Positions 27,766 to 59,079 of a DNA stretch of 64,000 nucleotides are shown here, one piece after another. Source of the stretch: Chitinophagaceae bacterium. GTDB taxonomy: Bacteria; Bacteroidota; Bacteroidia; Chitinophagales; Chitinophagaceae. The notes under the pieces were generated by a model. That model searched no databases. It was not told the origin of the DNA and worked only from the letters and a program-made list of their open reading frames with translations. Within the stretch, counting starts at the first letter, position 1. Every line of letters begins with the position of its first letter. The position numbers and the translations under genes were made by a program. Where the stretch lies: contig JAIXOJ010000031.1 of NCBI GenBank assembly GCA_027486835.1, positions 23,937-87,936 of the forward strand, read 5' to 3'.

Positions 27766-28096
27766 CGCTTTTTCTGCACAAAACTGCAATGCTGTTGATG
27801 TGTGATATATGCTAACTACCGGAAAAGAAAGTTAGATGCGCCAAATAAACAAAGTATAAAAATGTCTTGCAATCAATACCAGGCTAACATTCCAGTTCCC
27901 TCTCTTTTGGAGAGGGGTTGGAGTGAGGTTTAAATTAGGGGGGCGAAAAACGTTAATGCTCCCATCCATTTTCAGGTTTTCCCACTTTGAATCAGTAAAC
28001 TGTAGCAGGTGGTTTCAATATACTTTCTTGCTAAATAAAACCACCCACTTACCACTTACTAGTTTACTTTGCTCACTTATTCATATCTCTTTTATC

Positions 28097-29224
28097 ATGC
28101 GTATTGGCATAGTTTGTTACCCCACATTTGGCGGAAGCGGCGTTTTAGCTACAGAATTGGGCAAGGCTTTGGCCGACAAAGGACATCAGGTTCATTTCAT
28201 CACCTACCAGCAACCCGTGAGGCTAAATGTGTTTAACACCAATATCTTTTACCACGAAGTAAGGGTGCCTACCTATCCATTATTTGACTATCCTCCTTAC
28301 GAAATTGCCCTTGCAAGCACCATGGTAGATGTCATTATCAACCACGACCTCGATTTGCTCCATGTGCACTATGCCATCCCACACGCCTCTGCGGCTTACA
28401 TGGCCAAGCAGATTGTAAAAAAGAAAATTGGCAGAGAAATTCCCGTAATCACTACCCTTCATGGTACGGACATTACCTTGGTGGGCCGCGATAAAACCTA
28501 TGAACCCGTGGTTACTTTCTCTATTAATGAAAGCGACGCCATCACGGCAGTATCCGAAAATTTAAGGGAAGAAACCTATAAAAATTTCGACATTGTAAAG
28601 GACATTTCGGTAGTTACCAATTTTGTGGACATCAGTCGTTTCGATAAAAAACCCATCGATGCTTTCAAAAAAGTAATAGCACCCAATGGCGAGAAAATTT
28701 TGGTCCACGCCAGTAATTTCAGAAAGGTAAAGCGGGTTAACGATGTAATAAAAGTGTTTAGTGAAGTGAGGGCATTTCTCCCTGCTAAACTATTAATGGT
28801 GGGCGATGGTCCAGAGCGATCTTCGGCAGAAGAACTAGCAAGGTTGTTGGGCATTGCAGAAGACATTCGTTTTGTAGGCAAGCAAGAGCAAATGGAAGAA
28901 ATACTGGCAGTGAGCGATTTGTTTTTATTGCCCAGCGAATATGAAAGTTTTGGTCTTGCCGCACTAGAAGCTATGGCTGCGAAAAATGTAGTGATTAGTA
29001 CCAATGCAGGTGGTTTGCCAGAGGTAAATGTGCAAGGGAAAACAGGCTTCTTAGCCAATGTGGGCGATGTAGCCGCCATGAGCGATTTTGCCATCTCCTT
29101 GCTAAAGAATGAAGATTTGCTCTCGCAAATGAAAACCAACGCCTATGAACATGCCTTGAATTTTGACATCAGCCGCATTGTTCCTCATTATGAAGCAATT
29201 TATAAACAATTCTGCCGCATGTAG
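28097..29224 (+). CDS. bshA: GT4 glycosyltransferase, N-acetyl-alpha-D-glucosaminyl L-malate synthase (bacillithiol biosynthesis BshA-like)
   Basis: MRIGIVCYPTFGGSGVLATELGKALADKGHQVHFITY and an EX7E-type C-terminal GT4 fold. The start was moved to the ATG at 28097, because the upstream part of the ORF covers repeat elements. Confidence 0.7.
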   Translation: MRIGIVCYPTFGGSGVLATELGKALADKGHQVHFITYQQPVRLNVFNTNIFYHEVRVPTYPLFDYPPYEIALASTMVDVIINHDLDLLHVHYAIPHASAAYMAKQIVKKKIGREIPVITTLHGTDITLVGRDKTYEPVVTFSINESDAITAVSENLREETYKNFDIVKDISVVTNFVDISRFDKKPIDAFKKVIAPNGEKILVHASNFRKVKRVNDVIKVFSEVRAFLPAKLLMVGDGPERSSAEELARLLGIAEDIRFVGKQEQMEEILAVSDLFLLPSEYESFGLAALEAMAAKNVVISTNAGGLPEVNVQGKTGFLANVGDVAAMSDFAISLLKNEDLLSQMKTNAYEHALNFDISRIVPHYEAIYKQFCRM

Positions 29225-40658: not shown

Positions 40659-43600
40659 GTGTTTAGCATGAAACAGAGAAAGCCACTAGTTTGGTTAGTA
40701 GGTATGTCGTTAGTTGTGTTTTTTTCAACTATTCATTTAAGCTTTGGCAAAGCTGTATTTGCCAACCATAAAGAGGATAGAATTACTACCCCTCCATCGA
40801 ACAAACAAGCAACTCATGCAGTAAATGAACTTGAGCGTAAGCAAAGAATCCCTATTAGCCCCACCGCTACCCCAACCATTAGTTCCTTTTCGCCCGCCAT
40901 TGCCTGCCCTGGCAGTACGGTGAATATTGTGGGTACTGATTTTACTGGGGCTACTGCTGTACGATTTGGGGGTGTTGCTGCGGCTTCTTTTGTTGTTAAT
41001 TCTGCCACGAGCATTTCGGCTGTTGTGGCTGCGGGGGGTGTCAATGGCGTGGTTACTGTCACTACCCCAAGCGGCACTGCTACTAGTGCCACCAGTTTTT
41101 CAGTGGGTAGCGGCACGGTGGCTTATGCCTATATGACCAACTATGCCGACAATAATGTGAGCATCGTTAATACATCCACAGGTGTTGTTAGTTCCACCCT
41201 TGCCGTGGGTGCAACGCCATCTGGTGTAGCGGTTAACCCAAGTGCTACACGCGTCTATATTGCCAATTCAGGCGATAATACCATTAGTGTTATCAATACA
41301 AGCACCAATACTGTATCTGCCACTATTACTGTTGGTACCCAACCAGTAGGCATAGTGGTAAGCCCAGATGGCAGCAAGTTATACGTGACCAATTTTGGAG
41401 AAAACACCGTTAGCGTTATAAATACTAGCACAAACACCGTAACTACAACTCTAACGGTGGGCAGTGGTCCTACCGCCATTGTTATAGCTCCAGATGGCAC
41501 CAAAGTGTATGTGGCCAATAGTTTTGCCAATACCGTTAGCGTCATCAATACTTCCAACAACACCGTTAGCACACCGATGGTATTTACTGCTTTCACTTAC
41601 CCTGCGGGGCTTAGTATCAACAGTACAGGTACCGTTTTGTATGTGGCCAATCAATTTAAGAATACGGTTAGCTTCATCAGCACTGCAAGCAATACCATTA
41701 CAAAAACCGTTGCTGTAGGCAAAAACCCTATAGGATTAACCCTAAGTTCAGACAATGCCACGCTTTATGTGGCCAACAATGGTGGTAATTCTGTGAGCGT
41801 GGTGAATACAACAACAGCAACAGCTACTGCTACGGTTAACGTAGGTAGTGCACCCTTCGGATTGAGCGTTACACCCGACGGCTCTAAAGTGTATGTGGCA
41901 AATAATGGAGGCAACACGGTTAGCGTTATTAATACGAGCAACAATACGGCTGGAACATCTATTACCGTTGGTGGGTCACCTTTTGGTTTTGGTAATTTTA
42001 TGGCTAGTGTTGTTACCCCTTGTTTACCCACTATCAGTTCATTTACCCCCACCACAGCAGCTTTAGGCACAACAGTAACCATTTCGGGTACTAATTTATC
42101 AGGAGCCACAGGGGTGAAGTTTGGAGGTGTGGCTGCCACTTCTTTTTCGGTAATTAACAGCACTACCATTACTGCGGTAGTGGGTAGTGGTGCTACTGGG
42201 GATGTAGCTGTTACTACTTCTGGCGGTACTGCTACTAAAAGCGGTTTTACTTTTTGTACTAACGTTACCCCATCTGTTACCATTTCTGCAAGTGCTGCTA
42301 CCATTTGCTCAGGGAGTAGCGTCACTTTTACCGCAGTACCCACAAACGGAGGTAGTAGCCCTAGCTATCAGTGGAAAAAATTCAACACCAATGTGGGTAC
42401 CAATAGTGCCACTTTTACTACTTCCACCTTGGCCAATGGTGATTCTATATTGTGTGTAATGACCGCTAACAATGCCTGCCAAACCACCCCTACGGCAACA
42501 AGCAAACTTATTGGTGTAAGTGTGTATGCCACACCCGCTTCGCCATTTATATCGGGTGGCACTTGCGTGGGCAGTACTTTACAGGTGACCCCATCTAACA
42601 ATCTATCGCAGATTGATTGGCGACTTAACGGAAACACCATAAGTTCTGTGACCAATTTCGGAAGCAGTGGCAACACGTTCGCTGGGGGTAATGGTAGTGG
42701 TAGTGGCGTTAGCCAATTGAATTTGCCTATTGGGGTAATGCTCGATAATGCAGGCAATGTATATGTGAGTGATGGCAGTAACAACCGTGTTGTAAAATGG
42801 GCACCTGGTGCTTCAACTGGGGTAGTGGTAGCTGGGGGCAATGGTGCAGGCAATGGCTTAAAGCAATTACAATTTCCCGAAGGCATTTATGTGGACGGAA
42901 GCAATAGCGTATATGTAGCCGATAATAATAATCACCGAGTTGTGAAATGGACTTCTGGTGCTTCGGCAGGCGTATTGGTGGCTGGTGGAAATGGCCAAGG
43001 CAGTGCCGCCAACCAATTAAATTATCCCGATGGTATTTATGTGGATGCCAATGCTACAATATACATTGCCGATGCCTTTAACCACCGCATTCAAAAATGG
43101 ACGGCTGGGGCAACCACAGGTGTTACGGTTGCAGGAACTGGCATCAGTGGTAGCGGAGCCAGCCAATTAAATTCACCCTTAGGCGTGTTTGTGGATGGAG
43201 TAGGTACGGTTTACATAGCCGATTTCAACAATCATAGAGTACAAAAATGGACGGCTGGTGCATCATCTGGTGTTACGGTAGCGGGAGGCAATGGCCAAGG
43301 TAGTGCGGCTAACCAATTGAACAATCCAACTAGTGTATATGCCGACGAAGTGGGCAATGTGTATGTATCTGATTATGGTAACCACCGTGTTCAAAAATGG
43401 ACAGTGGGAGCTACCACTGGCGTTACCGTTGCTGGGGGCAATGGCAATGGCATTACCGCCCTTCAATTATCTAACCCCAACGGTATTTATTTAGATGGAT
43501 CTGGTAACTTATATGTAGCCGATGGGGGCAATAACCGTGTACAAGGGTATGCCGCAGGAGCTATTAAAAGCAACAGCTACACTACCACCGCGGCCGGTAC

Positions 43601-45986
43601 TTACACCGCCAAAGTATATAGCACGGGCGGCTGTGCTGCCACTAGCGGTAGTGTGGTGGTGAATGCAACTGTTAAGCCATCTATATCTATATCATCTAGT
43701 GGTGCAAGTACTTGTGCGGGTACCACCGTATTCTTTACAGCAGTTCCTACTAATGGTGGTACAAGCCCTATCTACCAATGGAAAATCAATGGCGTGAATA
43801 TCGCTGGTGCTATGGCAAATACTTATTCAAGTAATAGTTTGCCTAACAACAGTTTAGTAAGTTGTGCACTCACCAGTAATGCTGCATGTGCCAGCCCCAC
43901 CGATACTACCAGCAATTTTATATTCATCAGTTACAATAGTACGCCCAATTTATGGACAGGCAACACTAGTACAGACTGGTCTGTAGCCAGCAATTGGTGT
44001 AGCAATACCGTACCCACCAGTGGAGCAGACATTAATATTCCTGTAGTATCCAATGGGCGATACCCTGCTTTAGCTAGCAACACTACTATTGGAAGTATTA
44101 ATCTGGCTGCTGGTGCTAGCCTACAACTCAATGGCAAAACCCTCACCATCAATGGAGCAGTTGCGGGTACGGGTGTTCTTAAAGGTTCTACTACATCGGG
44201 CTTAGTGGTCAACAGCAGTAGCACTTCTACTTTTTATTTCAACAAAACAGCTACCGACACATTGCTTGGCACACTCACCATTAGCGGCAGCGGTGGTGCT
44301 AAACTGGGTAATGGCTTGGGTATAACCAGTTTACTTTCCCTCAATGCGGGCAACCTTGACCTCAATGGTAATAACCTTACTTTAGAATCCACCTCCATTT
44401 CAGCCACTGCGGTGGTAGGGTCTGTAACAAATGGTGCAACTATTGCGGGTAAGGTAACGGTGGAACGTTTTATTCCCAAAGGCTTTAAAGCTTATCGGCA
44501 GTTGAGTGCGGGCGGGGTGTACAATGCTGGTTCATTCTTTAACAATTGGCAAGAAGGCGGCAACAAGCCTAGTGGCTATGGTACACATATTATTGGCAAC
44601 AAAAGCACTACGGCTGGCTTTAACACCACTACAGGACTAGACAACACCGTTAATGGCAAAAGGGGCTTGTTCATTTATACCAATGGTGGTTGGGATTCCA
44701 TCGGCAATACCAAAACCACCAATATCGATCCCTGTATGGGTTACCACATTGGTATGTTTGGCGACAGAACGGTGAACTTATACCAATCTAATTTTGATGC
44801 ATCAAGCGCTTTGGTTACGGCAACAACGATCCGTACAACGGGTCAATTATTAACTGGTTCTGTTACCTATACCAGCACTAGCACCACTGGTTCATTTGGT
44901 ACCAGTAGTGCTAAACTAAATACCGCCAATAATGCGGGCAGCTTGGTGGGCAATCCTTATGCTTGCGCCATCGATTGGCACAGTCTAACCAAAACGGGCT
45001 TGACCAATAGTTATTACTATTTCGACCCCACTTTCCTCATTAGCAATAGCTATCAAGTGTTTGTGTCTTATAACGCCACATCGGGTACCAACAGCAATCC
45101 GGGCAATTCAAAAATTAACCGTTACATACAACCTGGTCAGGCATTTTGGGTGGAGAATACGGCTAGCAGCGGCACCAGGCAGTTGGTGATTAGCGAAAGC
45201 AACAAAGTGACCAATCAAGCTTACACGGCAGTGTTTGCCTCCGAAAAGCGGGTGAACCGTTTGGCTATTACCCTTTGGAAAAACATTCCTAGTAAAGGCA
45301 ATACCAATATCGATGGTGCTGTGGCCGTGTTTGATGCACCATTTACTACTGAATTAGGTGATGAAGACACCAAAAAAATGCCCAACAGTCACGAAGACCT
45401 AGCCATCTTAGCGCAGCAAACTCCATTGGCCATCAATGGGCAACCCGCACCCAAAGCTGGAGATCGAATGCTGTTGCAATTGGACAAATTAGTGCCTGGT
45501 GTTTCGTATGAACTGCGTTTGGACGGTAGTGAATGGCAGTCTGAGGGCTTAACTGCTTATTTGGTAGATCAATACTTACAGAAAGAAACGCCTTTGGGCA
45601 GTGGTGTTTTGCACTACACTTTCACCAGCGCCTCCCCCTCCAATAATGAACAGCGGTTTAGCATAGTATTTAGCCAAAAACCCGCTTCGGCCAGCTATGC
45701 TACCACCCAAATTCTGCCCGCTGTTTACGCAGTTTACCCTAACCCAGTAGTAGGCAAAAAAGCAACCCTTAGTCTTACCAATGTACCAGCAGGAAAATAC
45801 ACCTTGGCTTGGTATAACGCTATGGGTCAGTGTATTACTAAACAACCAGTTTATCACGCCGCTGGTAGTGGCAACATAACTTACCCACTTTCTGCTATTA
45901 ATAGCAAAGGATTTTTTAACCTTCAATTGACTAACGACAAGGGCGAAGTGGTGTACACACAATCTGTATTAGTGGTTAGGGATTAG
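40659..45986 (+). CDS. Giant (1775 aa) T9SS-secreted surface protein (paralog 3). Order: IPT/TIG-like domains, YVTN beta-propeller repeats, NHL repeats, Cys-containing Ig-like modules, shared pre-CTD module, type-A CTD
   Basis: Signal peptide, YVANSGDNTISVINTSTNTV-type YVTN repeats, NHRVVKWT-type NHL repeats, VERFIPKGFKAYRQL...NNWQEGG module, and C-terminal VYPNPVVGKKATLSL...VLVVRD. Confidence 0.85.
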   Translation: MFSMKQRKPLVWLVGMSLVVFFSTIHLSFGKAVFANHKEDRITTPPSNKQATHAVNELERKQRIPISPTATPTISSFSPAIACPGSTVNIVGTDFTGATAVRFGGVAAASFVVNSATSISAVVAAGGVNGVVTVTTPSGTATSATSFSVGSGTVAYAYMTNYADNNVSIVNTSTGVVSSTLAVGATPSGVAVNPSATRVYIANSGDNTISVINTSTNTVSATITVGTQPVGIVVSPDGSKLYVTNFGENTVSVINTSTNTVTTTLTVGSGPTAIVIAPDGTKVYVANSFANTVSVINTSNNTVSTPMVFTAFTYPAGLSINSTGTVLYVANQFKNTVSFISTASNTITKTVAVGKNPIGLTLSSDNATLYVANNGGNSVSVVNTTTATATATVNVGSAPFGLSVTPDGSKVYVANNGGNTVSVINTSNNTAGTSITVGGSPFGFGNFMASVVTPCLPTISSFTPTTAALGTTVTISGTNLSGATGVKFGGVAATSFSVINSTTITAVVGSGATGDVAVTTSGGTATKSGFTFCTNVTPSVTISASAATICSGSSVTFTAVPTNGGSSPSYQWKKFNTNVGTNSATFTTSTLANGDSILCVMTANNACQTTPTATSKLIGVSVYATPASPFISGGTCVGSTLQVTPSNNLSQIDWRLNGNTISSVTNFGSSGNTFAGGNGSGSGVSQLNLPIGVMLDNAGNVYVSDGSNNRVVKWAPGASTGVVVAGGNGAGNGLKQLQFPEGIYVDGSNSVYVADNNNHRVVKWTSGASAGVLVAGGNGQGSAANQLNYPDGIYVDANATIYIADAFNHRIQKWTAGATTGVTVAGTGISGSGASQLNSPLGVFVDGVGTVYIADFNNHRVQKWTAGASSGVTVAGGNGQGSAANQLNNPTSVYADEVGNVYVSDYGNHRVQKWTVGATTGVTVAGGNGNGITALQLSNPNGIYLDGSGNLYVADGGNNRVQGYAAGAIKSNSYTTTAAGTYTAKVYSTGGCAATSGSVVVNATVKPSISISSSGASTCAGTTVFFTAVPTNGGTSPIYQWKINGVNIAGAMANTYSSNSLPNNSLVSCALTSNAACASPTDTTSNFIFISYNSTPNLWTGNTSTDWSVASNWCSNTVPTSGADINIPVVSNGRYPALASNTTIGSINLAAGASLQLNGKTLTINGAVAGTGVLKGSTTSGLVVNSSSTSTFYFNKTATDTLLGTLTISGSGGAKLGNGLGITSLLSLNAGNLDLNGNNLTLESTSISATAVVGSVTNGATIAGKVTVERFIPKGFKAYRQLSAGGVYNAGSFFNNWQEGGNKPSGYGTHIIGNKSTTAGFNTTTGLDNTVNGKRGLFIYTNGGWDSIGNTKTTNIDPCMGYHIGMFGDRTVNLYQSNFDASSALVTATTIRTTGQLLTGSVTYTSTSTTGSFGTSSAKLNTANNAGSLVGNPYACAIDWHSLTKTGLTNSYYYFDPTFLISNSYQVFVSYNATSGTNSNPGNSKINRYIQPGQAFWVENTASSGTRQLVISESNKVTNQAYTAVFASEKRVNRLAITLWKNIPSKGNTNIDGAVAVFDAPFTTELGDEDTKKMPNSHEDLAILAQQTPLAINGQPAPKAGDRMLLQLDKLVPGVSYELRLDGSEWQSEGLTAYLVDQYLQKETPLGSGVLHYTFTSASPSNNEQRFSIVFSQKPASASYATTQILPAVYAVYPNPVVGKKATLSLTNVPAGKYTLAWYNAMGQCITKQPVYHAAGSGNITYPLSAINSKGFFNLQLTNDKGEVVYTQSVLVVRD

Positions 45987-46139
45987 TGGTTAGTTGAGTG
46001 CATAATTTACTTTCTTAACCTTAGCTATTGTCAACCTCCCGATTATTCAGTTAGTCGGGATGTTTTTTTGATGGAACTCCCTACACTTCTAAGAGGGAGA
46101 GAGAAGTATTAGGATAACTCTGTTTTCAAAACCGCTGTA

Positions 46140-46560
46140 CCCTGATTATCCTGTACTCAAACAAAAAAAGCCAGACCAGACAACTTTAGTAGCCCATTCG
46201 AGCTTAAATAATAATAACCTATTCAGAGATTACAATTATTCCGCCATCTGTAAAAGTACTCTAAGGATCAGTGGAGTCATATTTTCTGAGGCAGCAAGCA
46301 AAATAGTGTGCGATTTTTAGGCGGTGCGTCTCAGGAAAGCGAATACTATCACCACTAGAAAAAATTAACTCATATCCTGTAAATTCTTCTGCACTAATTG
46401 GTCCAGCTGTGCCAGTATCTATTACATTATAACACAATTTACAAAAGCAACACCCTTTGGTTTCGCCTTACTTTTAGCAGCTATGGAATTGCGAAAAACA
46501 ATGCTGTGTGTCAATGAACCATTGATACGATCTTCAATTAATGGATGTCCTTTTTATTCG
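46140..46560 (-). pseudogene. Frameshifted, 5'-truncated paralog of the 225-aa gene at 25701..26378, including its downstream terminator sequence
   Basis: Minus-strand translation gives ...IEDRINGSLTHSIVFRNSIAAKSKAKPKGVAFVNCVIM* then, after a frameshift, DTGTAGPISAEEFTGYELIFSSGDSIRFPET... This matches ...IEVRINGSLAHSIVFRDSIATKSKAKPKGVAF...DTGTAGPISADDFTGYELISSSGDNVRFPET of the intact gene. Downstream it carries taagctcgaatgg(g/a)ctacta. Confidence 0.6.
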
Positions 46561-46579
46561 CTTCAAACCAGCCGCTATT

Positions 46580-46750
46580 TGACGGCAACCAAACGAAGCC
46601 TCCGCGAGCCTCTCGTCAACTGACGGCAGCCAAACGGAGCCTCCGCGAGCCTCTCGTCAACTGACGGCAACCAAACGGAGCCTCCGCGAGCCTCTCGTCA
46701 ACTGACGGCAATCAAACGGAGTCTCCGCGACCCTCTCGTCAACTGACGGC
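46580..46750. repeat. Tandem array of 4.2 copies of a 41-bp unit (tgacggcaaccaaacggagcctccgcgagcctctcgtcaac)
   Basis: Read directly from the sequence. It lies immediately 5' (on the coding strand) of the pseudogene. Confidence 0.9.
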
Positions 46751-46988
46751 TGAAAAAAGAAGCTTTTTACAATAAGAAATCAATTGAGGGAAAGCCCATC
46801 GAAGCATCCAACCGCTTGAAATCAATTGATGGCGAAAGATTAACCCTCTTTGCAGTTAAGTATTTGGAGAAATCTGCTTGTCATGCGTTGGTTGGTTTCG
46901 GGGTTTAGTTGGAGTGACTACAAATTTTCTTTTCTTTACTGAGCGCTTTTGTATCTCAGCATTTCAAATATGGTTGCTGCTTTTTAAT

Positions 46989-47091
46989 TGGGGGTGCGTA
47001 AAAGTTTTTCGCTATGAAGCTTCGTTTTAACTTATACAGGGTTTCAAACCCTATATAAGTTTGCGAAAGGGGCGAAAAACTTTTACGCACC
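46989..47091. mobile_element. MITE-like element: 21-bp terminal inverted repeats gggtgcgtaaaagtttttcgc / gcgaaaaacttttacgcaccc around an ~60-bp structured core (gggtttcaaaccc hairpin)
   Basis: Perfect TIRs. A second full copy at 63390..63490 carries the same core in inverted orientation, with TIR positions co-varying (gcgt/acgc vs gcac/gtgc). Confidence 0.55.
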
Positions 47092-47207
47092 CAACCAGAT
47101 TGGCTTATTTCCCTTCTGGAAATATCTAGGACTAAAGCATACAAGATATAAATGGTACTAAGCACTCTCCGGACCATTGACACTTGTTATGAATAACCAA
47201 CAGAAAT

Positions 47208-49145
47208 CTATCTAGGTACTTCCAACTTATTGTTTTCTCGCTTTACGTCGGCCAATCGAAAGCTAGGGTCTATTTCTATTGATTTAATATCCTTCAAATT
47301 ACGAGAAATGCTAAGCGTATAGGTAGGATGCGTCCATTTCCATTCAGGTGCTATAACCCTTGGCAAGTTGTCTTCTTGCAGCTTATAGCCAAAGAGTAAA
47401 TCAAGTGGCACATAATACAATTCTTTGCTACCATCTTTATAACTGATTAACACATCCACAGGCATAGGCATTTTGCCAAGCCGTTTAAGGGTAATTTCGG
47501 TTTTATTGTTCACCAGTTCAATATTACCCACTGCATAATCAATGGTTTTGATACTATTAACCCAATATTCTTTGTACCACTGCAAATGCAAGCCACTTAC
47601 CTTTTCCGCCACTCGAATAAAGTCATTGGCATTGGGATGTTTAAATCGCCACTGGTTGTAATATTCATGTAAAATAACATTCCGTACACTGTCACCCACT
47701 ATGTAGCCCAACTGCGCCAAAAACACCGCACCCTTAGCATATGATGCCGCTGAATAACCAAAATTGGTGTTGAAATGATCAGCATGGGTAGATAGCGGTT
47801 CCTCATAAGGACTCGCTGCAAGATTAAAGTAGCCAGCATAGCTATCGGCCTGTTTAAGGGGTAAATCATCCTTTTCTTTAGCGTAAGTAGCGGCATTCGC
47901 TGCTTTAGTGGCTGCATTAACAAAGGGCGATTGGGTAGCCCAATTGGCATTGTAATAATCGGTTACTTCATTTTCGGCAAAAGAGGTAAATCCTTCATCC
48001 ATCCAAGCAAAAAGGCTTTCGTTAGTACCCAATAAATGCTGGTACCAATTGTGCATCCATTCATGGAAAACAGCCCCTAGCCCTGGCCCTCTTAGCAAAG
48101 TAGCCATGGCATATTCCATTCCACCATCACCACCTTGTATAAAGGAATATTGCGGATAAGGATATTTTCCATAATGGCTTTCTATAAAGGGTAATACCTT
48201 TTCTGCGGCATACAAAATATTGCTCCAAGCACTGTCTGTACGTTTATCGCCCGCTTTGTAAACCACATGCAAGGTTACACCACGGGTTTTCTTAGATAGG
48301 TGTTTAAAATTGGGATCGGCAGCCCAAACAAAATCATGGATATTTTCCCCTTTAAAGTTCCAAGTTATTGTTTTTCCAGTAGCGGCAGGCACTTTTACAC
48401 CCGCATCTTCATAGCCAAAACCGATGGAATTCGCATTTTGTAAAACGCCCGTACCAGCAATTAGGTAGTTTTTATCGATGGTTATTTTTACATCATAATC
48501 ACCCCACACGCCATAAAACTCACGAGCTATATAAGGGTTAGCATTCCACCCTTGGTAATCGTATTCCACCATTTTAGGATACCATTGACTCATACTAAAC
48601 CGCACCCCCTCGGCATTATCTCTACCGCTTCGGCGGATTTGCAAAGGAACTTGCGCTTGAAAAGCCAACTCAAGATTGGTTTTGCTTCTAGGCAAAATGG
48701 GTTTACTTAGTCTTACTTCCAGTATCGTTTCATGGTTAACCAAGGTTTGAGCAACCCCGTTTATTTTAATGCTATTTACCCGCTGGTACCCAATTTGGTC
48801 TTCGGTAAGTTTACTGATTCGGTCGCGAACCCTACCATCCCAGTCAAGTCGTGGTTCTCCGTTTCTGCTAGTGCCTAGTACGGTTTTACCTAGTTCTTGG
48901 CTTCTCACATCCATGCTGCTATTAGGCTGGAATGCATTCCAATACAAATGAAAAAACAACTTGTCCAATGTATCGGGCGAATTATTGATATACTCAATTA
49001 CTTCAGTACCCGAAAATTGATTGGCATCTACATCCACTTGCACAGCAATATTGTATTTTATACGCTGCTGCCAACGGTCAGACTGTGCAACAACTGATTG
49101 GCACAGTAAGCAACAAATAACTACTCTAAATATCCAATTTAACAT
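47208..49145 (-). CDS. Secreted M1-family zinc metallopeptidase (aminopeptidase N-like)
   Basis: Signal peptide, HEWMH (HExxH) and downstream WMDEGF zinc ligand. 645 aa. Confidence 0.75.
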   Translation of the reverse strand: MLNWIFRVVICCLLCQSVVAQSDRWQQRIKYNIAVQVDVDANQFSGTEVIEYINNSPDTLDKLFFHLYWNAFQPNSSMDVRSQELGKTVLGTSRNGEPRLDWDGRVRDRISKLTEDQIGYQRVNSIKINGVAQTLVNHETILEVRLSKPILPRSKTNLELAFQAQVPLQIRRSGRDNAEGVRFSMSQWYPKMVEYDYQGWNANPYIAREFYGVWGDYDVKITIDKNYLIAGTGVLQNANSIGFGYEDAGVKVPAATGKTITWNFKGENIHDFVWAADPNFKHLSKKTRGVTLHVVYKAGDKRTDSAWSNILYAAEKVLPFIESHYGKYPYPQYSFIQGGDGGMEYAMATLLRGPGLGAVFHEWMHNWYQHLLGTNESLFAWMDEGFTSFAENEVTDYYNANWATQSPFVNAATKAANAATYAKEKDDLPLKQADSYAGYFNLAASPYEEPLSTHADHFNTNFGYSAASYAKGAVFLAQLGYIVGDSVRNVILHEYYNQWRFKHPNANDFIRVAEKVSGLHLQWYKEYWVNSIKTIDYAVGNIELVNNKTEITLKRLGKMPMPVDVLISYKDGSKELYYVPLDLLFGYKLQEDNLPRVIAPEWKWTHPTYTLSISRNLKDIKSIEIDPSFRLADVKRENNKLEVPR

Positions 49146-49299: not shown

Positions 49300-51621
49300 T
49301 TGCTCTCTAACGAATTGCTTATGAACTTATTGCCACCCGTTGTAAAACAAGTAAGCAGCGCATTATTGCTTATCTGTTTATCTTTTTTTACTACACTAGC
49401 TCAAAATAAATACCCTGTAAAAATGCCCACCCATCCCCGTGTATTGGTAACGGTAAAGGATATTCCAGCATTAAAAGAGCGCATTCAACATCCTGATTTT
49501 GCTTCGCTAATGCGGGCATATAAAGAACAAAAAGAATATGCCACAGATGGGGTATCTGCCAATGGCGAACCAGATGAACACATTCGGCAGAAAATTGAAT
49601 CGCTGGCTTTTGATTATTTGCTCAACTCAAGTGCAGCAAAAGAAGCTGGGTTGGCTGCGGTACAATTGATACAGATTTATCTGCCTTCAATTACCAAAAC
49701 AAAGGGCTATCACCAGAATGCACATACCTACGATGCGGTTTTTACAGCAGCATTGGTGTATGATTGGTGCTATGATTTGCTGGATACAGCCACTAAAACC
49801 AAACTGATTGCACAAATGAAAAACACAAGCTGCTTGGCTGAGTATTGCATCTTTAAAAATACCCCCAAACAATACCTCAATGGCCACTATGGCGAGTATG
49901 CCCCCTCTGTGTTTTTGGCAATGGGCTTGGCTATTTATGACGAACAGCAGGACGTGTTCGACTTTGCCTACCAAGAACAGGTGGAACGTTTTGCCCCCAC
50001 CCGCAATCCGTGGTATGCTTCGGGGGCGCATCATCAGGGTAGTCAATATATCCATGTGCGCTATGGCAATGAGCTGTTGCAGGCTTTTTTGTTGGATAAA
50101 TTGGGCATTAGTCCATACAAAAGAGAAATAAGCACCGTGGCATTTCGGGAGCTGTACGCCAATATTCCCCAAGCAACCGATATGGACGGTATGCCCGAGG
50201 GAGATTGTCACAACAACATTACCATGGGCAATCATTATATGGCCTTTGTTCCCATTGCTGCTACGCTTTCGAAAAATCCTTTTTTGCAAGGGTATGCTCA
50301 AATGAGCCTAGAGAAGTTATCCGAAATCCCTACAAGGGCTTTTCTCTTCTACAATCCTTTATTAAGCGCTGCACCATTTGACAGCTTACCATTGAGCCGT
50401 TTCTTCTCTTCACCTTCTGGATTAATGATTGCCCGCACCAAGTGGGACATAGACAAAAAGGGCAAACCCTCCGATGCCATGGTGGTGCTGATGAATATGC
50501 GGGAATACAATGCTAAAAACCATGTTCACTTAGATGTGGGGCATTTTGGCATTTATTATAAAGGTCATTTGGCTTTAGATGCAGGTATTTATCAAGGCAA
50601 AGACCCCAACAATGAATGGGGTAAGCTGAACTATGTGAACTATTATGCCCGCACCGTGGCCCACAATTCCTTGCTCATCCTCGACCCCAACGAACCCACG
50701 CCTTACGAAGGCTCTAACATTAAAGCTACATCAAGAGATGGTGGGCAGTTTTCGTTTAAAAACCGTGCGTTCGACAGTATTCAAGAAATGTTTGCGGCGG
50801 ACAAATCTGCCGAAATATTAGCCCATGAAATTAGTAAGGGTATGAGTCCAGACTATACCTACTTGATGGGCGACATGACAAGGGCGTATAATGTGCCGAG
50901 AAACGTAGCCGTTTATCCTGCAAAAGCCGATACGGTGAGAAGAAGTTTTGTGTTCTTGAACCTGCACAACCCACAAGTGCCCGGCGCATTGATCGTGCTG
51001 GACAAAGTGGTAAGCACCAATGATTCTTTCCAAAAAAAGTGGGTACTGCATTCGCAGAACGAACCCACCGTTAGCAATGGCAGCATCAGCTTAGAAAGCA
51101 CGGAAGCAGGGAGGAACGGCAAGTTGGTAAACGAAGTGCTGCTTCCCCAGTTCGGCAACCGACAAATAGAAAAGATTGGCGGTGAAGGCAAAGAATACTG
51201 GGTGGACGGCAAAAACTGGGGTACGGTAACCCAGCAGGACGCCGGCAGATGGCGGATAGAACTATCGCCCAAAACAGCCGCGAAATCAGACAACTTTTTG
51301 AACGTGATCCAAGTGATGGATGCCGCGCCATCGCCCAAAACATTGCCCGTTGCAAAAGCTTTTTCGACCGAAGGCAATTATGTAGCCATTACCATAGACA
51401 ATAGAATAGTAGCCCAACACCTGCGCTTATGCACCAACGCAGCCCCCATCACTTTCACCATTGGGGATAAAAAGAAAGTGTATCATGCTTTGGTAACCGA
51501 CTTGAAAACTGGCAAATGGAAAGTGTATGGAAAGCAGATAGTGACTGTAGCGAAGGATGCAGGTACTGCTTATTTTGATACAAAAGGAGGAATGGTTAAG
51601 ATGGAGTGGGTAGGGGAATGA
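49300..51621 (+). CDS. Heparinase II/III-family (alginate-lyase superfamily) polysaccharide lyase-like protein
   Basis: NHVHLDVGHFGIYYKGHLALDAGIYQ...YYARTVAHNSLLILD matches the HxHxDxGxF...D.G.Y...HNt core. It also has an N-terminal HPRVLVTVKDIPALKERI and a signal peptide. Confidence 0.7.
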   Translation: MLSNELLMNLLPPVVKQVSSALLLICLSFFTTLAQNKYPVKMPTHPRVLVTVKDIPALKERIQHPDFASLMRAYKEQKEYATDGVSANGEPDEHIRQKIESLAFDYLLNSSAAKEAGLAAVQLIQIYLPSITKTKGYHQNAHTYDAVFTAALVYDWCYDLLDTATKTKLIAQMKNTSCLAEYCIFKNTPKQYLNGHYGEYAPSVFLAMGLAIYDEQQDVFDFAYQEQVERFAPTRNPWYASGAHHQGSQYIHVRYGNELLQAFLLDKLGISPYKREISTVAFRELYANIPQATDMDGMPEGDCHNNITMGNHYMAFVPIAATLSKNPFLQGYAQMSLEKLSEIPTRAFLFYNPLLSAAPFDSLPLSRFFSSPSGLMIARTKWDIDKKGKPSDAMVVLMNMREYNAKNHVHLDVGHFGIYYKGHLALDAGIYQGKDPNNEWGKLNYVNYYARTVAHNSLLILDPNEPTPYEGSNIKATSRDGGQFSFKNRAFDSIQEMFAADKSAEILAHEISKGMSPDYTYLMGDMTRAYNVPRNVAVYPAKADTVRRSFVFLNLHNPQVPGALIVLDKVVSTNDSFQKKWVLHSQNEPTVSNGSISLESTEAGRNGKLVNEVLLPQFGNRQIEKIGGEGKEYWVDGKNWGTVTQQDAGRWRIELSPKTAAKSDNFLNVIQVMDAAPSPKTLPVAKAFSTEGNYVAITIDNRIVAQHLRLCTNAAPITFTIGDKKKVYHALVTDLKTGKWKVYGKQIVTVAKDAGTAYFDTKGGMVKMEWVGE

Positions 51622-54145: not shown

Positions 54146-54391
54146 AATTGATGGGTTTCAAATTTCTCTTAGAAAATTTAATGCTCTTGGAAAACATCCA
54201 AGTTTTATGGCAATATAGGGTTTGCATGTTATCAGCTTTCCTCCTACAGCGACCATCACATTCACTCACTTTCTTCATCCCAAAATGAAATCAGGTGTTC
54301 ATCTAGAAAACAAGATCCTAAGTGCAATAAAAAAGAGCCATCAACCGAAGCTGATGACTCTTTTTTTTAATGCCTTTTTGATAACAGTGTA

Positions 54392-54580
54392 CTATTTCTT
54401 TTTGTTTTTGTACAGTTTGTTCACTCCGTAAGAAGCACCCGCTGCCAGCAACAAAGAAATACCACCATCAATTGGAGCAGCACCACCACCGCCAGAACCT
54501 GGAGGGGTTGCATGAGCTACTGTTGCGGCCAAGAACAACACAACTGTCATCGTAATCATTTGAACCAAATTCTTCTTCAT
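54392..54580 (-). CDS. Mini-protein C: signal peptide + Gly-rich linker + IDGG–TM helix–KNKKK
   Basis: 62 aa: MKKNLVQMITMTVVLFLAATVAHA | TPPGSGGGGAAP | IDGGISLLLAAGASYGVNKLYKNKKK. Same architecture as 21533 and 55126. Confidence 0.5.
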   Translation of the reverse strand: MKKNLVQMITMTVVLFLAATVAHATPPGSGGGGAAPIDGGISLLLAAGASYGVNKLYKNKKK

Positions 54581-55052
54581 AATTTTTTTTCAGTTTTTGC
54601 CCTCATCCCCTAAAGAGTGCATTATTTAAATTAAATTTCCTACATAGGGTATATAGGAATTTGCTAAATGAGATAATTAAGCTACGATCAAATTACCCAT
54701 TGAAATATGAGACTGTGGCAAAATAAGGATTCATTTGTAAAAAACAAACCGTATTTCCAAAATAGGTGGGTTTTGCATATTTATGATCAACTGTTGGGCG
54801 TACAAATACTAAATAATATAGTAAGCCTTTCTTTCCAAAACCCCCTTTGAGAGATATTGGCTTAGCACATCAATCTAAATAGCTACAATTTAACAATTAT
54901 AGTGAGTGTGAAAGCTGATAGTTCTTATACCTCTTTCCCAACCATTTTCCATAAGCGAGGGCTAGCGAAATTTATAATAACACTATGCATAATGTAGGTC
55001 AATACAATTTAGGACATTAGCGATAGTATAGTAAACCCCTTCTTCCTTTGTC

Positions 55053-55093
55053 ACAAAAAAGGCACAGCTCAATATAAATCAGTGCTGTGCCTT
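55053..55093 (-). terminator. Rho-independent terminator of the giant-4 + mini-protein B operon
   Basis: Stem aggcacagc / gctgtgcct followed by a T-run on the minus strand, 35 bp after the mini-protein stop. Confidence 0.6.
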
Positions 55094-55125
55094 TACACAA
55101 AAAGATGGTCGGTTTATGACTGTAA

Positions 55126-55365
55126 TTATTTTTTGGGGCTGCCGATGCTTTTGATTTTCTTAGCGGCATAGCCAATGCCACTAGCTGCTAAGACCAAACT
55201 CATGCCTCCATCAAAAGGAATGACTGGGCCACCGCCAGTTGTTGGAAATCCACCACCGCTACCACCGCCACCTGGGGTAGTACCACCACCCCCAAACTGG
55301 GCAGATAGTTGTAAGGAAACCAAAGCCGCAGCCCCCATCAATACTGTTTTAAATATCTTTTTCAT
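55126..55365 (-). CDS. Mini-protein B: signal peptide + Gly-rich linker + PFDGG–TM helix–KK motif, probably co-transcribed with giant gene 4
   Basis: 79 aa: MKKIFKTVLMGAAALVSLQLSAQ | FGGGGTTPGGGGSGGGFPTTGGGPVIP | FDGGMSLVLAASGIGYAAKKIKSIGSPKK. Only 13 bp separate it from the stop of the 1233-aa gene. Confidence 0.6.
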   Translation of the reverse strand: MKKIFKTVLMGAAALVSLQLSAQFGGGGTTPGGGGSGGGFPTTGGGPVIPFDGGMSLVLAASGIGYAAKKIKSIGSPKK

Positions 55366-55377
55366 GCCTTTTCTTTT

Positions 55378-58300
55378 TTACCTTATAAATAATGATGCTG
55401 AACAAACCTTAGATGACTCATTGTTGAGTACAATAGTATAAAAACCTGATGATATAGACGCATTTAATTCAATTGTATATTTGCCAGCACCTCCTAGATG
55501 TTTAATGGATTGACGAATCTCTACCTTGCCTAAAGCATTGTAAACAACTACTTGGTAGTTCCCTTTGGGTAATGCCTCGCAGAAAAGCTGTATTTTATTA
55601 TCCACTACAGGATTGGGAAATACTCGGATACTTGCTTTACCGTCATTCTGGGTATTGGCTATGATTGGGTTAAACTTAGCATTTGCAAATTGGATACTAA
55701 AGCGTTCTGTACTGCCTTCGTAATGACCAAACCTATACTCCAATCCTTCCGTTTCTATCTTGACTTGTTTACCCAACAAAGCATCTACCAAAAAGGCTTC
55801 TTGGCCTTTACTGCTAAATTCAGTAGCATCAATATGTAATTGATAGGAGGTATTAGGTACTAAATTCCAAAGCTTTAATGGTAAAATATCACCAGCATTC
55901 GGCATGGGCAAACCATCGATAGAAATATCTTGATTACCCTCTACAATTGCGAGGTTCTCTTTTGAATTCTGCATTTTTTTAGCATCCTCGGCTCCATATG
56001 CTTTGGCGTATTCTTGGTCAAACACGGCCACCGCTCCATCTATGTTTTTACTACCGATGCCTTCCAGATTTTTCCATAGACTGATAGCCAATCTATTAAT
56101 TGGTTTTGAAGTTTTATACACTGCCGTAAATGATTGGTTGGTTACTTTGTTGCTCTCTGCAATTACTAGTTGCCTTGTACTGTTGCTAGCTGTATTCTCC
56201 ACCCAAAATGCTTGTGCAGGTTGTATGTAACGGTTGATTTTAGATAAGGTGGGGTTACTATTTGTTCCAGTACTTGCATTGTAGGATACAAAGACTTGGT
56301 AACTATTACTCACCAAAAAAGAAGGGTCAAAATAATAATAGTTGTTGGTTAATCCTGTTTTGGTTACTGCGTGCCAGTCGATGGCACAAGCATAAGGATT
56401 CGCAATAAAACTACCCGCATTATTAACCGTTGAAAGTTTGGCTGAACTTGTACCAAAGCCTCCACCAGTTGTGTTAGTCGTTCCAAAAGTAATTGTCCCT
56501 GTTACCAATTGTCCTGTTGTTCTGATGGTAGTTGCGTTGGTCATGCTACTAGAAGTGTCAAATTTATTTTGGTAGAGGTTTACATTTCTGTCGCCAAACA
56601 TGGCTACATGATAACCAATACAGGGGTCAATATTGGTGGTTTTTGTATTGGCTATGGAATCCCAAGCATTGTTTGTGTAAATAAACAATCCCCTGTTTCC
56701 GTTGGTGGTGTTATCCAGTCCTGTAGTAGCATTAAAGCCAGGGCTTGTACTTTTATTTCCTATAATGTACGTACCATATCCCATTGGCCTACTTCCTTTT
56801 TCCTGCCAATTATTAAAGAATGAACCAGCATTATACACGCCTCCTGCACCTAACTGGCGATAGGCTTTAAAGCCTTTAGGAATATAGCGTTCTACAGTTA
56901 CACTGCCTGTAATAGTTGCACCATTAGTTATTGGGCCAACAGCTGCAGTGGCTGAGATAGAAGTTGATTTTAGGGTTAAAAAATTTCCGTTAAGGTTGAG
57001 GTTACCAGCGTTTAGTGAGAGCAATCCAGTGATTCCCACACCCGTTCCCAATTTGGCACCGCCTGTTCCGCTAATGGTTAAAGCGTTTAATAAAGAATCG
57101 TTCGCTACTTTGTTGAAGTACACAATAGACGTACTGCTACTGTTCACCACCAAACTGGATGTTGATGATCCTTTCAATACCCCCGTACCCGACACCAAAC
57201 CATTGATGGTAAGGGTTTTTCCGTTGAGGCTCAGACTTGTTCCTGTAGGCAAAGAAAGGTTGCTAATTGCCGTATTTGCAGCTAACACGGGATAACGCCC
57301 TGTTGCCACAACAGGAATATTGATGTTGCTGCCTGCAAGCGGTACAGTATTGCTACACCAGTTGCCACCAACTGACCAATCCGTGCTAATAGCTCCTGTC
57401 CAAGTATTGGCAACACCAGTTACTGTAATGGTGATGGCATTGCTGGTTACTTGGGTTGGTACTGCACAAGTGGCGTTACTGTTTAATACGGCAGTTACTT
57501 TATCATTATTGGCCAATGAGTTACTACTATAGGTGTTGCCAGTAGCCCCAACGGAACTACCATTTACATACCACAAAGGAGCGGCAGTTCCTGCATTAGC
57601 TGTATTGGCAGTGAACGAAACACTAGTACCTGCGCAAATGGATGTTTTATTAGCCACAATAGAAATGGAAGGCGTGAGGTTAGCGTTCACAGTCATCTTT
57701 ACGGAGTTACTTGTGGCAGAAGTGGTAGTAGCACAGGTGACATTGCTTGTTAAAACAACTGATATTAAGTCATTATTTGCCAAGGTTGATCTAGTGAAAG
57801 TGGGTGCGGTTGCCCCAGAGATATTTATACCGTTAATTTTCCATTGGTAGGAAGGGCTTCCTCCTCCGTTAGTAATAACGGAAGAAAACGTAACACTACT
57901 TCCAGAACAAATATTACTAGCACTAGCATTAATACTAATGGTAGGGGTAACTTTTGGGTTAACGGTCACTTTGATGCTATTGCTCGTTTTCGTAGGAGGA
58001 ATGGCGCATACCGCATTACTAGTAATTGTACAAGTTATAGCATCGTTGTTAACTAGACTGCTTACGCTATAAGTAGCCGATGTGGCTCCAGTGATGGGAA
58101 CACCATTTTTGTTCCATTGGTAAGAAGGACTTGTTCCGCCATTGGTAATAGACGCAGAGAAAGTAATAGAAGTACCGGTACATATAGTGGTGGCTGTTGC
58201 GTTGATAGCAATAGTTGGCGTTACTGGGATACAAAGTACAAATCCAGCTAAACTTGCAGTGCCCGTTGGCCCTACCACTGACACCGTTCCACTTGCACCA

Positions 58301-59079
58301 CTAGCCACCACTGCTGAAATAGTGCTATCATTTAGTACAGTAAATGAGGAAGCGGCCACCCCACCGAAACTAACACTACTGGCTCCAGTAAACGAACTAC
58401 CACTTATGGTAATGGTAGATCCCGCTGGGGCTACCGTTGGTGTAAAACTGGTAAGTGTAGGCACACTGCGAACAAAGGCAATACTACCTATAAAACCTCT
58501 TGGATACCTAAAGGGCATAAAAGGTAAATTATCTCCTGACCATCCTACGTTTCCACCAGTAATAATATTAACATTGCCAGCGGTTGCGGTATACACAGTT
58601 TCATCAAACAAACCTTCATAACTGAGGCCTTGCCCGCTACCGTCGTCGGCATTAACACAAAAGCCATAGGTTCGTCCTGGTGGAACAACCACATATAAAG
58701 CATCGGTTAGCATATTTACCCCCGCAGTGCCAGCAATAGTACCAGTACCCGCACTTACCCATCCATTTAAGCCATCACCAACATCGCCCTGAGTCCAAGT
58801 ATCACTGGAAGACAGAACGGCAGTGGGATTATACAAAACCGTCCAATTATGATTGCCTGCATTGAGTAGGTGGCAGCTTACCGTGTTTACAGTGATAGGA
58901 AATACGTTGTTATTTTGAACATTGAAAATGATAGAGTTAAATGCATAATTATTGAAAGAATGCGATGTGGTAACTGTTGTTTGCGCATTCAAGCCGTTGG
59001 TAAGGCAAACAAGCAGCACTAATATTCCTATCTTGGTGAAAGCGTATAGGTTTTTCATTTTTGAAACCAAGTAATCCAT
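55378..59079 (-). CDS. Giant (1233 aa) T9SS-secreted surface protein (paralog 4): IPT/TIG-like domain, four Cys-containing Ig-like modules, shared pre-CTD module, type-A CTD
   Basis: Signal peptide. Four ~75-aa modules with C..G(S/T).V(T/S)F.A....GG(T/S)(S/A)P.YQW(K/N). About 75% identity to paralog 3 over the VERYIPKGFKAYRQL...NNWQE region. C-terminal VFPNPVVDNKIQLF...SLFIR. Confidence 0.85.
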   Translation of the reverse strand: MDYLVSKMKNLYAFTKIGILVLLVCLTNGLNAQTTVTTSHSFNNYAFNSIIFNVQNNNVFPITVNTVSCHLLNAGNHNWTVLYNPTAVLSSSDTWTQGDVGDGLNGWVSAGTGTIAGTAGVNMLTDALYVVVPPGRTYGFCVNADDGSGQGLSYEGLFDETVYTATAGNVNIITGGNVGWSGDNLPFMPFRYPRGFIGSIAFVRSVPTLTSFTPTVAPAGSTITISGSSFTGASSVSFGGVAASSFTVLNDSTISAVVASGASGTVSVVGPTGTASLAGFVLCIPVTPTIAINATATTICTGTSITFSASITNGGTSPSYQWNKNGVPITGATSATYSVSSLVNNDAITCTITSNAVCAIPPTKTSNSIKVTVNPKVTPTISINASASNICSGSSVTFSSVITNGGGSPSYQWKINGINISGATAPTFTRSTLANNDLISVVLTSNVTCATTTSATSNSVKMTVNANLTPSISIVANKTSICAGTSVSFTANTANAGTAAPLWYVNGSSVGATGNTYSSNSLANNDKVTAVLNSNATCAVPTQVTSNAITITVTGVANTWTGAISTDWSVGGNWCSNTVPLAGSNINIPVVATGRYPVLAANTAISNLSLPTGTSLSLNGKTLTINGLVSGTGVLKGSSTSSLVVNSSSTSIVYFNKVANDSLLNALTISGTGGAKLGTGVGITGLLSLNAGNLNLNGNFLTLKSTSISATAAVGPITNGATITGSVTVERYIPKGFKAYRQLGAGGVYNAGSFFNNWQEKGSRPMGYGTYIIGNKSTSPGFNATTGLDNTTNGNRGLFIYTNNAWDSIANTKTTNIDPCIGYHVAMFGDRNVNLYQNKFDTSSSMTNATTIRTTGQLVTGTITFGTTNTTGGGFGTSSAKLSTVNNAGSFIANPYACAIDWHAVTKTGLTNNYYYFDPSFLVSNSYQVFVSYNASTGTNSNPTLSKINRYIQPAQAFWVENTASNSTRQLVIAESNKVTNQSFTAVYKTSKPINRLAISLWKNLEGIGSKNIDGAVAVFDQEYAKAYGAEDAKKMQNSKENLAIVEGNQDISIDGLPMPNAGDILPLKLWNLVPNTSYQLHIDATEFSSKGQEAFLVDALLGKQVKIETEGLEYRFGHYEGSTERFSIQFANAKFNPIIANTQNDGKASIRVFPNPVVDNKIQLFCEALPKGNYQVVVYNALGKVEIRQSIKHLGGAGKYTIELNASISSGFYTIVLNNESSKVCSASLFIR

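Follow-up and report, generated by a model that had tools for sequence, protein, structure and literature searches.

The PID-CTERM domain and the enzyme exosortase X (XrtX) are already known in that both have curated models (viz. NF046080 in NCBIfam and PF28310 in Pfam for the domain, and NF046081 in NCBIfam for the enzyme), and the exosortase, archaeosortase, and rhombosortase systems in general have been summarised previously (PMC7468200). In Flavobacterium johnsoniae, deletion of the exosortase gene xrtF or of its partner gene leads to the same colonisation and biofilm defects as deletion of the T9SS attachment genes porU, porV, or porZ, and the substrates of the exosortases of this species were stated in a 2024 study to be unknown (PMC10936215). 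In the present work, we have analysed a stretch of 64,000 nucleotides (nt) from a Chitinophagaceae bacterium (assembly GCA_027486835.1, contig JAIXOJ010000031.1, positions 23,937 to 87,936; the whole stretch is referred to below as the window), which encodes three very small proteins, designated mini-A, mini-B, and mini-C, in the neighbourhood of giant genes for type IX secretion system (T9SS) cargo. The minis are probably secreted mini-proteins that consist almost entirely of sorting signal, and the most plausible product of each is an exosortase-processed peptide that acts together with neighbouring T9SS cargo. The features of the window on which this account draws are given below in the numbering of the window.

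9427..21285, plus strand: giant gene 2, 3952 amino acids (aa), T9SS type-A cargo
21300..21354, plus strand: hairpin between giant gene 2 and mini-A, 13-bp outer stem, without a T-run
21533..21787, plus strand: mini-A, 84 aa, PFDGG type with a Pro-rich linker, the third family member, found by a six-frame motif scan
21793..21835, plus strand: perfect 20-bp hairpin directly after mini-A (z = -6.5, 0 of 200 shuffles as stable)
54329..54366, minus strand: strong predicted intrinsic terminator after mini-C, with GC-rich stem, UUCG loop, and U6
54392..54580, minus strand: mini-C, open reading frame (ORF) of 62 aa, assigned by model match as a canonical PID-CTERM protein, sequence MKKNLVQMITMTVVLFLAATVAHATPPGSGGGGAAPIDGGISLLLAAGASYGVNKLYKNKKK
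55053..55094, minus strand: terminator-like hairpin after mini-B, with 11-bp stem, 15-nt loop, and T-run
55126..55365, minus strand: mini-B, ORF of 79 aa, PFDGG type, sequence MKKIFKTVLMGAAALVSLQLSAQFGGGGTTPGGGGSGGGFPTTGGGPVIPFDGGMSLVLAASGIGYAAKKIKSIGSPKK
55366..55377, minus strand: spacer from the stop codon of giant gene 4 to the ATG of mini-B, 12 nt, A-rich, AAAAGAAAAGGC
55378..59079, minus strand: giant gene 4, a 1233-aa surface protein that combines Ig/PKD-like repeats with a C-terminal domain (CTD) of T9SS type A, the first gene of the pair with mini-B

The ORFs of mini-B and mini-C had been put forward in an earlier, sequence-only reading of this locus, and both were recovered on the minus strand at the coordinates given there, with mini-C lying 545 nt further on than mini-B, as that reading had reported. 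These two ORFs are real genes and did not arise by chance; for mini-B, 59 homologs are present in the database, the non-identical ones among them reaching down to E = 1e-23. Mini-B begins with a signal peptide (residues 1-22, with the cut between LSA and Q), after which come a linker rich in Gly, the PFDGG motif, and a short membrane helix with a KK..K tail behind it, while mini-C has a signal peptide that ends between AHA and T, a Gly-rich linker of 11 residues, PIDGG, a membrane helix, and a KNKKK tail. In the tail common to the two, P-F/I-D-G-G is thus followed by about 14 residues that are small or hydrophobic and then by an end rich in Lys, and the distance from the motif to the stop is 23-30 residues in mini-B and mini-C and 37 in mini-A. 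All three minis show, directly in their sequence, an N-terminal signal peptide and, at the extreme C-terminus, the motif together with a membrane helix and a basic cluster. The difference between IDGG in mini-C and FDGG in the other copies was correctly noted in the earlier reading; that the motif at the C-terminus is a signal for protein sorting was not recognised there. Within the PFDGG group, the signal-peptide end A22-Q23 is conserved in at least 90% of the aligned sequences; an N-terminal Gln after cleavage by signal peptidase I is a habit of the Bacteroidota, and the A-Q end fits this habit. Beyond minis A-C, the window holds zero copies or degenerate remnants of the family, including the regions after giant genes 1 and 3.

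Comparison with curated models places the minis in, or next to, the PID-CTERM family. Mini-C matches NF046080 from end to end (model positions 1-25 of 25) with 48.8 bits, which meets the curated cutoff of 26 bits, and by this match it is a canonical PID-CTERM protein. The motif, helix, and basic cluster that define the PID-CTERM tail are found at the extreme C-terminus of all three minis, and in other genomes the gene directly downstream of a PID mini can be an exosortase that passes the XrtX cutoff. The differences from the described PID-CTERM/XrtX system are that minis A and B have PFDGG, one extra helix residue, and sub-cutoff scores, that the window is without XrtX, and that the Chitinophagaceae exosortases stay below the XrtX cutoff. 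PF28310 is precomputed on most homologs of mini-B and mini-C, and although it is missing on mini-B itself, it is present on the close homologs P0003 and P0004; our own scan with the Pfam library gave no match for the minis. Comparison of 26 PFD tails with 44 PID tails by hhalign gave a probability of 99.2% (E = 3e-19), with a single one-residue gap in the alignment that falls in the helix, where the PFDGG type is one residue longer. The hidden Markov model (HMM) of the tail that was built here matches mini-B with E = 3e-14 and mini-A with E = 1.4e-15. A family profile search among 1.84 billion cluster representatives returned 1377 matches at E <= 0.001, and the best 150 of these 1377 are all 59-174 aa long and carry PFDGG (62), PIDGG (44), PLDGG (21), or PVDGG (7), so that a profile dominated by PFD minis also retrieves the PIDGG, PLDGG, and PVDGG minis. 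P-x-D-G-G is invariant in the aligned family members, and about nine-tenths of the readable top representative matches keep the motif. On these sequence comparisons, mini-A and mini-B are members of a divergent PFDGG subfamily that is homologous to the PID type and expanded in the Chitinophagaceae.

A more distant likeness exists to the PEP-CTERM/exosortase (EpsH/XrtA) system, with which the minis share a signal peptide, a short Pro-containing motif, a helix, and a C-terminal basic cluster, and whose enzyme belongs to the same exosortase/archaeosortase family (the TIGR04178 signature is passed by the exosortases of the relatives). Haft et al. are said to have described in 2006 that many PEP-CTERM proteins are short and of low complexity, which would make them similar to the minis in this respect as well. 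However, the minis carry P-I/F-D-G-G and not P-E-P, the tag is found on mini-proteins only, and the genomic partner is T9SS cargo instead of an exopolysaccharide locus. No PEP-CTERM model matched the minis, and PID_CTERM was the only one of the NCBIfam models to do so at E <= 1.

The genomic neighbourhood of the PID minis in relatives supplies an enzyme of the expected kind. A PID mini followed by an exosortase-family gene is found at seven loci (L005, L059, L075, L081, L082, L085, and L086), which come from three Chitinophagaceae metagenome-assembled genomes (MAGs) and, in two gene contexts, from four related metagenome scaffolds. The gene order begins with a large protein, which has a T9SS CTD in L005 and L059 (as judged by our own CTD model and the C-terminal sequence), and continues with the PID mini-protein and an exosortase of 196-199 aa. 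The mini stop codon and the exosortase start overlap in L005, L059, L075, L081, and L082, and the two genes are 90 nt apart in L085 and L086. After the exosortase comes a membrane protein of 105-143 aa without an NCBIfam or Pfam match, then an NHL-repeat protein of about 960-1370 aa (T9SS CTD confirmed for L005, L085, and L086), and a PFDGG mini closes the order in L005, L059, L075, and L082. The best model for the exosortases of these relatives is XrtX, and the general signature TIGR04178 is passed. In a metagenome sample seeded with PID-type minis, an exosortase lies at most 400 nt downstream of 12 of the 69 evaluable minis; four of these exosortases pass the XrtX cutoff of 170 bits (with 212, 192, 184, and 172 bits), and two are XrtY-like at scores under the XrtY cutoff of 160 bits (L132 6256..6837, 126 bits; L162 6348..6971, 120 bits). 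With XrtY-like neighbours of PID minis present, a tag of this kind may be used by exosortases of more than one type.

These exosortases have XrtF (TIGR04128; 57-100 bits) as their second-best model, and the small membrane protein of about 125 aa that follows them is also a feature of the F. johnsoniae system, where it is called the exosortase F-associated protein. XrtX and XrtF differ in that XrtX has a separate NCBIfam model, and the small partners observed in our loci match no NCBIfam model; these partners may correspond to the F. johnsoniae protein. As a separate observation, each XrtX-like gene that was examined (e.g. L005 5120..6080, L059 1341..2298, and L075 5250..6207, and including L083/L084 and L087/L088) is followed by a membrane protein of 105-143 aa and then by a large gene. 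This large gene encodes T9SS cargo in every case that has a Por_Secre_tail record, and it often has NHL repeats; the downstream cargo gene thus ties the exosortase locus itself to T9SS cargo.

The most systematic property of the family is its position behind genes for T9SS type-A cargo. A type-A CTD is present in all four giants of the window (312..4940, 9427..21285, and 40659..45986 on the plus strand, and 55378..59079 on the minus strand). Giant gene 4 scores 30.4 bits with TIGR04183 as a whole protein and 36.3 bits on its C-terminal 150 aa (cutoff 23), has a Pfam Por_Secre_tail match of 34.6 bits, and contains Ig_3 and PKD_3 domains; giant gene 2, which lies 247 nt before mini-A, scores 28.9 bits with TIGR04183 against the same cutoff of 23. 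By eye, the four giants were also seen to have a conserved C-terminal module in common, for example VERFIPKG..A.R......(V/F)(Y/F)NAGS.FNNWQE in giants 1, 3, and 4.

The pairing of a giant gene with a mini-gene, which the sequence-only reading had described for giant gene 4 and mini-B, is conserved in relatives. A scan that covered one genome per species yielded 77 loci, all but one of them labelled Chitinophagaceae (including Parasediminibacterium and freshwater MAGs), with from 1 to at least 14 family copies per genome, every match being a mini-protein. Por_Secre_tail is present in 51 of 55 upstream neighbours (53 same-strand neighbours in relatives and two from the window). A test over genes of at least 200 aa with downstream sequence, using a CTD model cleaned of non-CTD neighbours, found a mini within 1 kb downstream of 47 T9SS-CTD genes (none for 27) and of 2 other genes (none for 257), with a median gap of 80 nt; the resulting odds ratio of 224 (p = 2.5e-35) addresses the identity of the upstream gene only, since the loci had been selected for holding a mini. 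An independent metagenome sample of PID-type minis, scanned with a narrow PID alignment, agrees, as 45 of 51 distinct upstream neighbours have Por_Secre_tail, and the pairing is therefore not specific to the PFDGG subfamily. On one metagenome scaffold, a 72-aa PID_CTERM gene begins 7 nt after a 1112-aa Por_Secre_tail gene, and the same mini occurs on a contig of the TARA ocean survey. Linker similarity among the minis tracks the similarity of the upstream CTDs (Mantel r = 0.67, 0 of 2000 permutations), and this match of subtypes indicates that the pairs are inherited and duplicated as units; the correlation can come from co-duplication alone and does not by itself imply a physical interaction.

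PorP/SprF-like genes lie downstream of T9SS type-B CTD cargo genes (viz. SprB/SprF of F. johnsoniae) and offer a parallel for this arrangement. In both cases a cargo-specific accessory gene is located directly behind a large T9SS cargo gene and has been duplicated many times per genome with its cargo. However, the PorP/SprF proteins are outer-membrane beta-barrels of several hundred residues that serve type-B CTDs, whereas the minis are 60-90 aa long, of inner-membrane type, and placed behind type-A cargo, and no sequence relationship exists between the two.

The local sequence is consistent with expression of mini-B from the same transcript as its giant neighbour. The sequence-only reading had placed mini-B 13 bp after the 1233-aa T9SS gene; the adjacency is correct, while 13 is the coordinate difference and the true spacer is 12 nt. 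This spacer has no predicted secondary structure (0 kcal/mol), no terminator was found in it, and it is too short to leave room for a terminator or a promoter before mini-B. The hairpin and T-run which that reading had placed after mini-B were likewise found, with the stem at 55094..55058 and the T's extending to about 55053; the region folds with -23.3 kcal/mol (z = -2.9 versus shuffles), and the same hairpin was recovered by a separate hairpin/T-rich scan. The predicted terminator of mini-C folds with -26 kcal/mol (z = -6.4, 0 of 200 shuffles as stable), and the region 21286..21400 between giant gene 2 and mini-A folds with -34.5 kcal/mol and resembles the hairpins in the giant-mini gaps of relatives. 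A generic terminator scan missed all of the relevant hairpins because it limits loop and tail (that of mini-B was missed on account of its 15-nt loop), and the regions were folded directly instead. The same strand, a gap without terminator or promoter, the terminator-like hairpin after mini-B, and the conserved pair support the view that giant gene 4 and mini-B form a two-gene operon, as had been proposed earlier, and their co-transcription is what we infer from this arrangement. A sigma-70 promoter scan gave 16 sites where 16.6 were expected, and the Bacteroidota -7 motif TAnnTTTG, looked for upstream of minis A, B, and C and of the giants, yielded nothing usable. In relatives the usual giant-mini gap is 60-110 nt, and the spacing of mini-B is among the tightest; downstream of the mini, a hairpin and T-rich stretch are present in 55 of 79 cases. 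Where a hairpin occurs inside the gap, it usually lies 10-25 nt past the stop codon (loci L002-L078; e.g. L002, at about 8100..8170), and such a gap hairpin could set how much of each product is made, by attenuation, by partial termination, or by stabilising the mRNA.

The reading of the minis that we favour, with somewhat better than even confidence, is that they are secreted proteins composed almost wholly of sorting signal and are processed by an exosortase. Mini-B would be expressed from one transcript with the 1233-aa T9SS type-A cargo gene, and each mini-protein would be exported by Sec and lose its signal peptide, which would leave minis A and B with an N-terminal Gln. The C-terminal helix would then hold the mini-protein in the inner membrane until an XrtX-type exosortase, encoded outside the window, cleaved it at or near the P-x-D motif and moved the remaining Gly/Pro-rich peptide of 10-30 residues onto an acceptor. 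The proposed export, anchoring, cleavage, and transfer are modelled on the analogous PEP-CTERM/exosortase, PGF-CTERM/archaeosortase, and GlyGly-CTERM/rhombosortase systems. The processed peptide would finally act in the envelope alongside the T9SS cargo encoded next to it, for instance by helping to attach or display this cargo; this envelope role is suggested by gene order, with some support from the shared phenotype of the xrtF and por mutants of F. johnsoniae, and it is the most likely one given that genes of the family follow T9SS cargo genes across the Bacteroidota and co-diversify with them. A precedent for the fate of type-A cargo after removal of the CTD is provided by PorU, which attaches T9SS cargo to anionic lipopolysaccharide (A-LPS) through a linking sugar that bears Ser or Gly, an acceptor that offers an amino-acid amine (PMC7468200). 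The minis similarly offer Gly-rich peptides, but a covalent link between the minis and the cargo is purely hypothetical. N-terminal Gln is usually cyclised in the Bacteroidota, and the N-terminal amine of minis A and B would therefore be blocked.

Two other explanations concern the nature and the origin of the mini-genes. The ORFs could be no genes at all, or could encode unrelated peptides of small size and hydrophobic character (for instance toxins or leader peptides) whose position is coincidental, and their very short length and partly low complexity, the failure of mini-B to match in the Pfam library scan, and the absence of the exact mini-C sequence from the protein database would all fit such a view. 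However, hundreds of homologs with a conserved signal-peptide end, an invariant motif, and a conserved tail, the existence of curated NCBIfam and Pfam models for this tail, the highly non-random position behind T9SS genes, and terminators directly past the stop codons leave this explanation with next to no probability. The sequence-only reading had interpreted mini-B and mini-C as products of local duplication, i.e. a tandem copy diverging beside a surface-protein locus, which is an understandable interpretation of two genes that lie 545 nt apart on the same strand with the same architecture and with a third copy (mini-A) in the same window. This part of the reading is not borne out. Mini-B and mini-C are only 35% identical, as compared with 41% for mini-A and mini-B, though the latter two are 33 kb apart; the flanks of mini-B and mini-C share no nucleotide similarity, and a one-residue indel separates the membrane segments of these two. 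Mini-C is 67-95% identical to PID-type minis of other genomes, the 67% referring to P0064 (apparently the mini of L005, where an exosortase comes next) and the 95% to a protein from a closer genome; being far closer to PID minis elsewhere than to mini-B, mini-C is not a recent copy of mini-B. PID-type minis also hold a distinct conserved place upstream of the exosortase, and the PFDGG minis, which number up to at least 14 per genome, each lie behind a T9SS gene of their own, so that we consider a recent tandem duplication highly improbable.

The main rival to exosortase processing is that the minis remain uncleaved, as peptides that cross the inner membrane once, with a short Gly/Pro-rich stub in the periplasm and a basic tail in the cytoplasm, and that serve as cargo-specific tethers or chaperones before entry into the T9SS, the likeness to sorting signals being limited to shared membrane-anchor features. 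Several of our results are what such tethers would lead one to expect, viz. a tag that occurs on mini-proteins only and never on large proteins, a window without an exosortase, PFDGG minis that score under the PID_CTERM cutoff, and the tight pairing and joint diversification with T9SS cargo. An invariant P-x-D-G-G is, however, hard to explain for a plain anchor, PID minis repeatedly adjoin exosortases (with overlap at five loci, and with some of the exosortases passing the XrtX cutoff), and the profile homology of 99.2% between PFD and PID tails connects the former to the latter. On balance we regard uncleaved tethers as unlikely. Exosortase processing of the minis has nevertheless a number of observations weighing against it. 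No exosortase gene was found in the 64-kb window, the exosortases of the Chitinophagaceae relatives reach only 120-143 bits where the XrtX cutoff is 170, and four XrtX-like genes (L083, L084, L087, and L088, in two contexts) are without an upstream PID mini. Mini-B (17.4 bits) and mini-A (24.2 bits) score below the NF046080 cutoff, as do five PFDGG minis of relatives (20.5-25.8 bits). The tail HMM matched 99 ORFs in 1.06 Mb (the window plus relatives), none of them on an ORF of 160 aa or longer, and 85 ORFs, all of 45-179 aa, in another 0.49 Mb from metagenome loci; the full-length profile is biased towards small proteins, and the restriction to minis holds for these samples, with large PID-CTERM proteins possible elsewhere. 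Being confined to minis sets the tag apart from classical sorting signals, and the supposed cargo may be no cargo at all. With respect to the partnership with T9SS cargo, 27 of 74 T9SS-CTD genes are without a mini gene, including giants 1 and 3 of the window, which score 29.8 and 23.7 bits with TIGR04183 (cutoff 23), and the limits given above for the odds ratio and the Mantel correlation belong here as well. A stable hairpin and a T-rich stretch lie inside the giant-mini gap in 23 of the 49 relatives with longer gaps, so that tight giant-mini coupling is not universal, and in many pairs the coupling may be attenuated or independent.

Our search of the literature found no paper on PID-CTERM or XrtX, none that links an exosortase substrate to T9SS cargo genes, and no experiment on any member of the family. 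Beyond the curated models, we have found no description of the sub-threshold PFDGG subfamily or of how it has expanded, of the confinement of the tag to minis in these samples, or of the systematic place of the family behind T9SS type-A cargo genes. Since the PFDGG subfamily falls just below the PID-CTERM cutoff, its members will be labelled 'hypothetical protein' or not be called, despite numbering at least 14 copies in the richest genome.

The remainder of the window contains several other features, which are recorded here as observations in their own right.

5367..6128: LytTR-type response regulator gene, adjoining the next feature
6222..6748, minus strand: overlapping ORFs of 74 aa and 102 aa with a toxin-antitoxin-like layout (by eye)
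22840..25036, minus strand: overlapping genes of 444 aa and 293 aa, matching the ATPase PtuA (125 bits) and the HNH endonuclease PtuB (52 bits)
27923..29224, plus strand: GTG-started ORF with a BshA (bacillithiol synthesis) match from residue 59
45987..47207: 1.2 kb after giant gene 3 without a convincing gene
47208..49145: M1-type peptidase-like gene, adjoining the next feature
49300..51621, plus strand: 773-aa relative of polysaccharide lyases with a full-length match to the heparin/heparan-sulfate lyase HepB (445 bits; equivalog cutoff 600)

The pair at 22840..25036 is probably a Septu-like defence pair, with matches (of Septu/retron-Ec78 anti-phage type) that are far under the equivalog cutoffs. 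The true start of the BshA-like gene is probably further downstream, as its match begins at residue 59. In the region after giant gene 3, the ORFs 46483..46623 and 46545..46664 overlap and both end in KRSLREPLVN, which suggests a short direct DNA repeat.

The pairing described here bears on how Bacteroidota without Porphyromonas-type A-LPS attach T9SS type-A cargo to their surface, and also on the substrates of the small exosortases of this phylum, for both of which minis that bear an exosortase-type tag, adjoin exosortase genes in some genomes, and lie directly behind T9SS type-A cargo in about two-thirds or more of the evaluable cases provide a concrete candidate link. A bolder proposal, which we regard as quite unlikely, is that the PID-CTERM minis are the missing substrates by which small exosortases of the Bacteroidota (XrtX and perhaps also XrtF and XrtY) are connected to the T9SS. 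Each T9SS type-A cargo gene would then have a mini-gene of its own, whose product the exosortase would turn into a Gly/Pro-rich peptide anchored in the envelope, with this peptide as a cargo-specific attachment partner of the giant adhesin or even as its transpeptidation acceptor. If true, the peptide would have a role comparable to that of SprF/PorP for type-B cargo or of the Gly/Ser-bearing linking sugar of A-LPS in Porphyromonas, and the proposal would account for the likeness of F. johnsoniae xrtF mutants to mutants of porU, porV, and porZ. As it stands, the finding hints at a link between two protein-sorting systems, the exosortase system and the T9SS.

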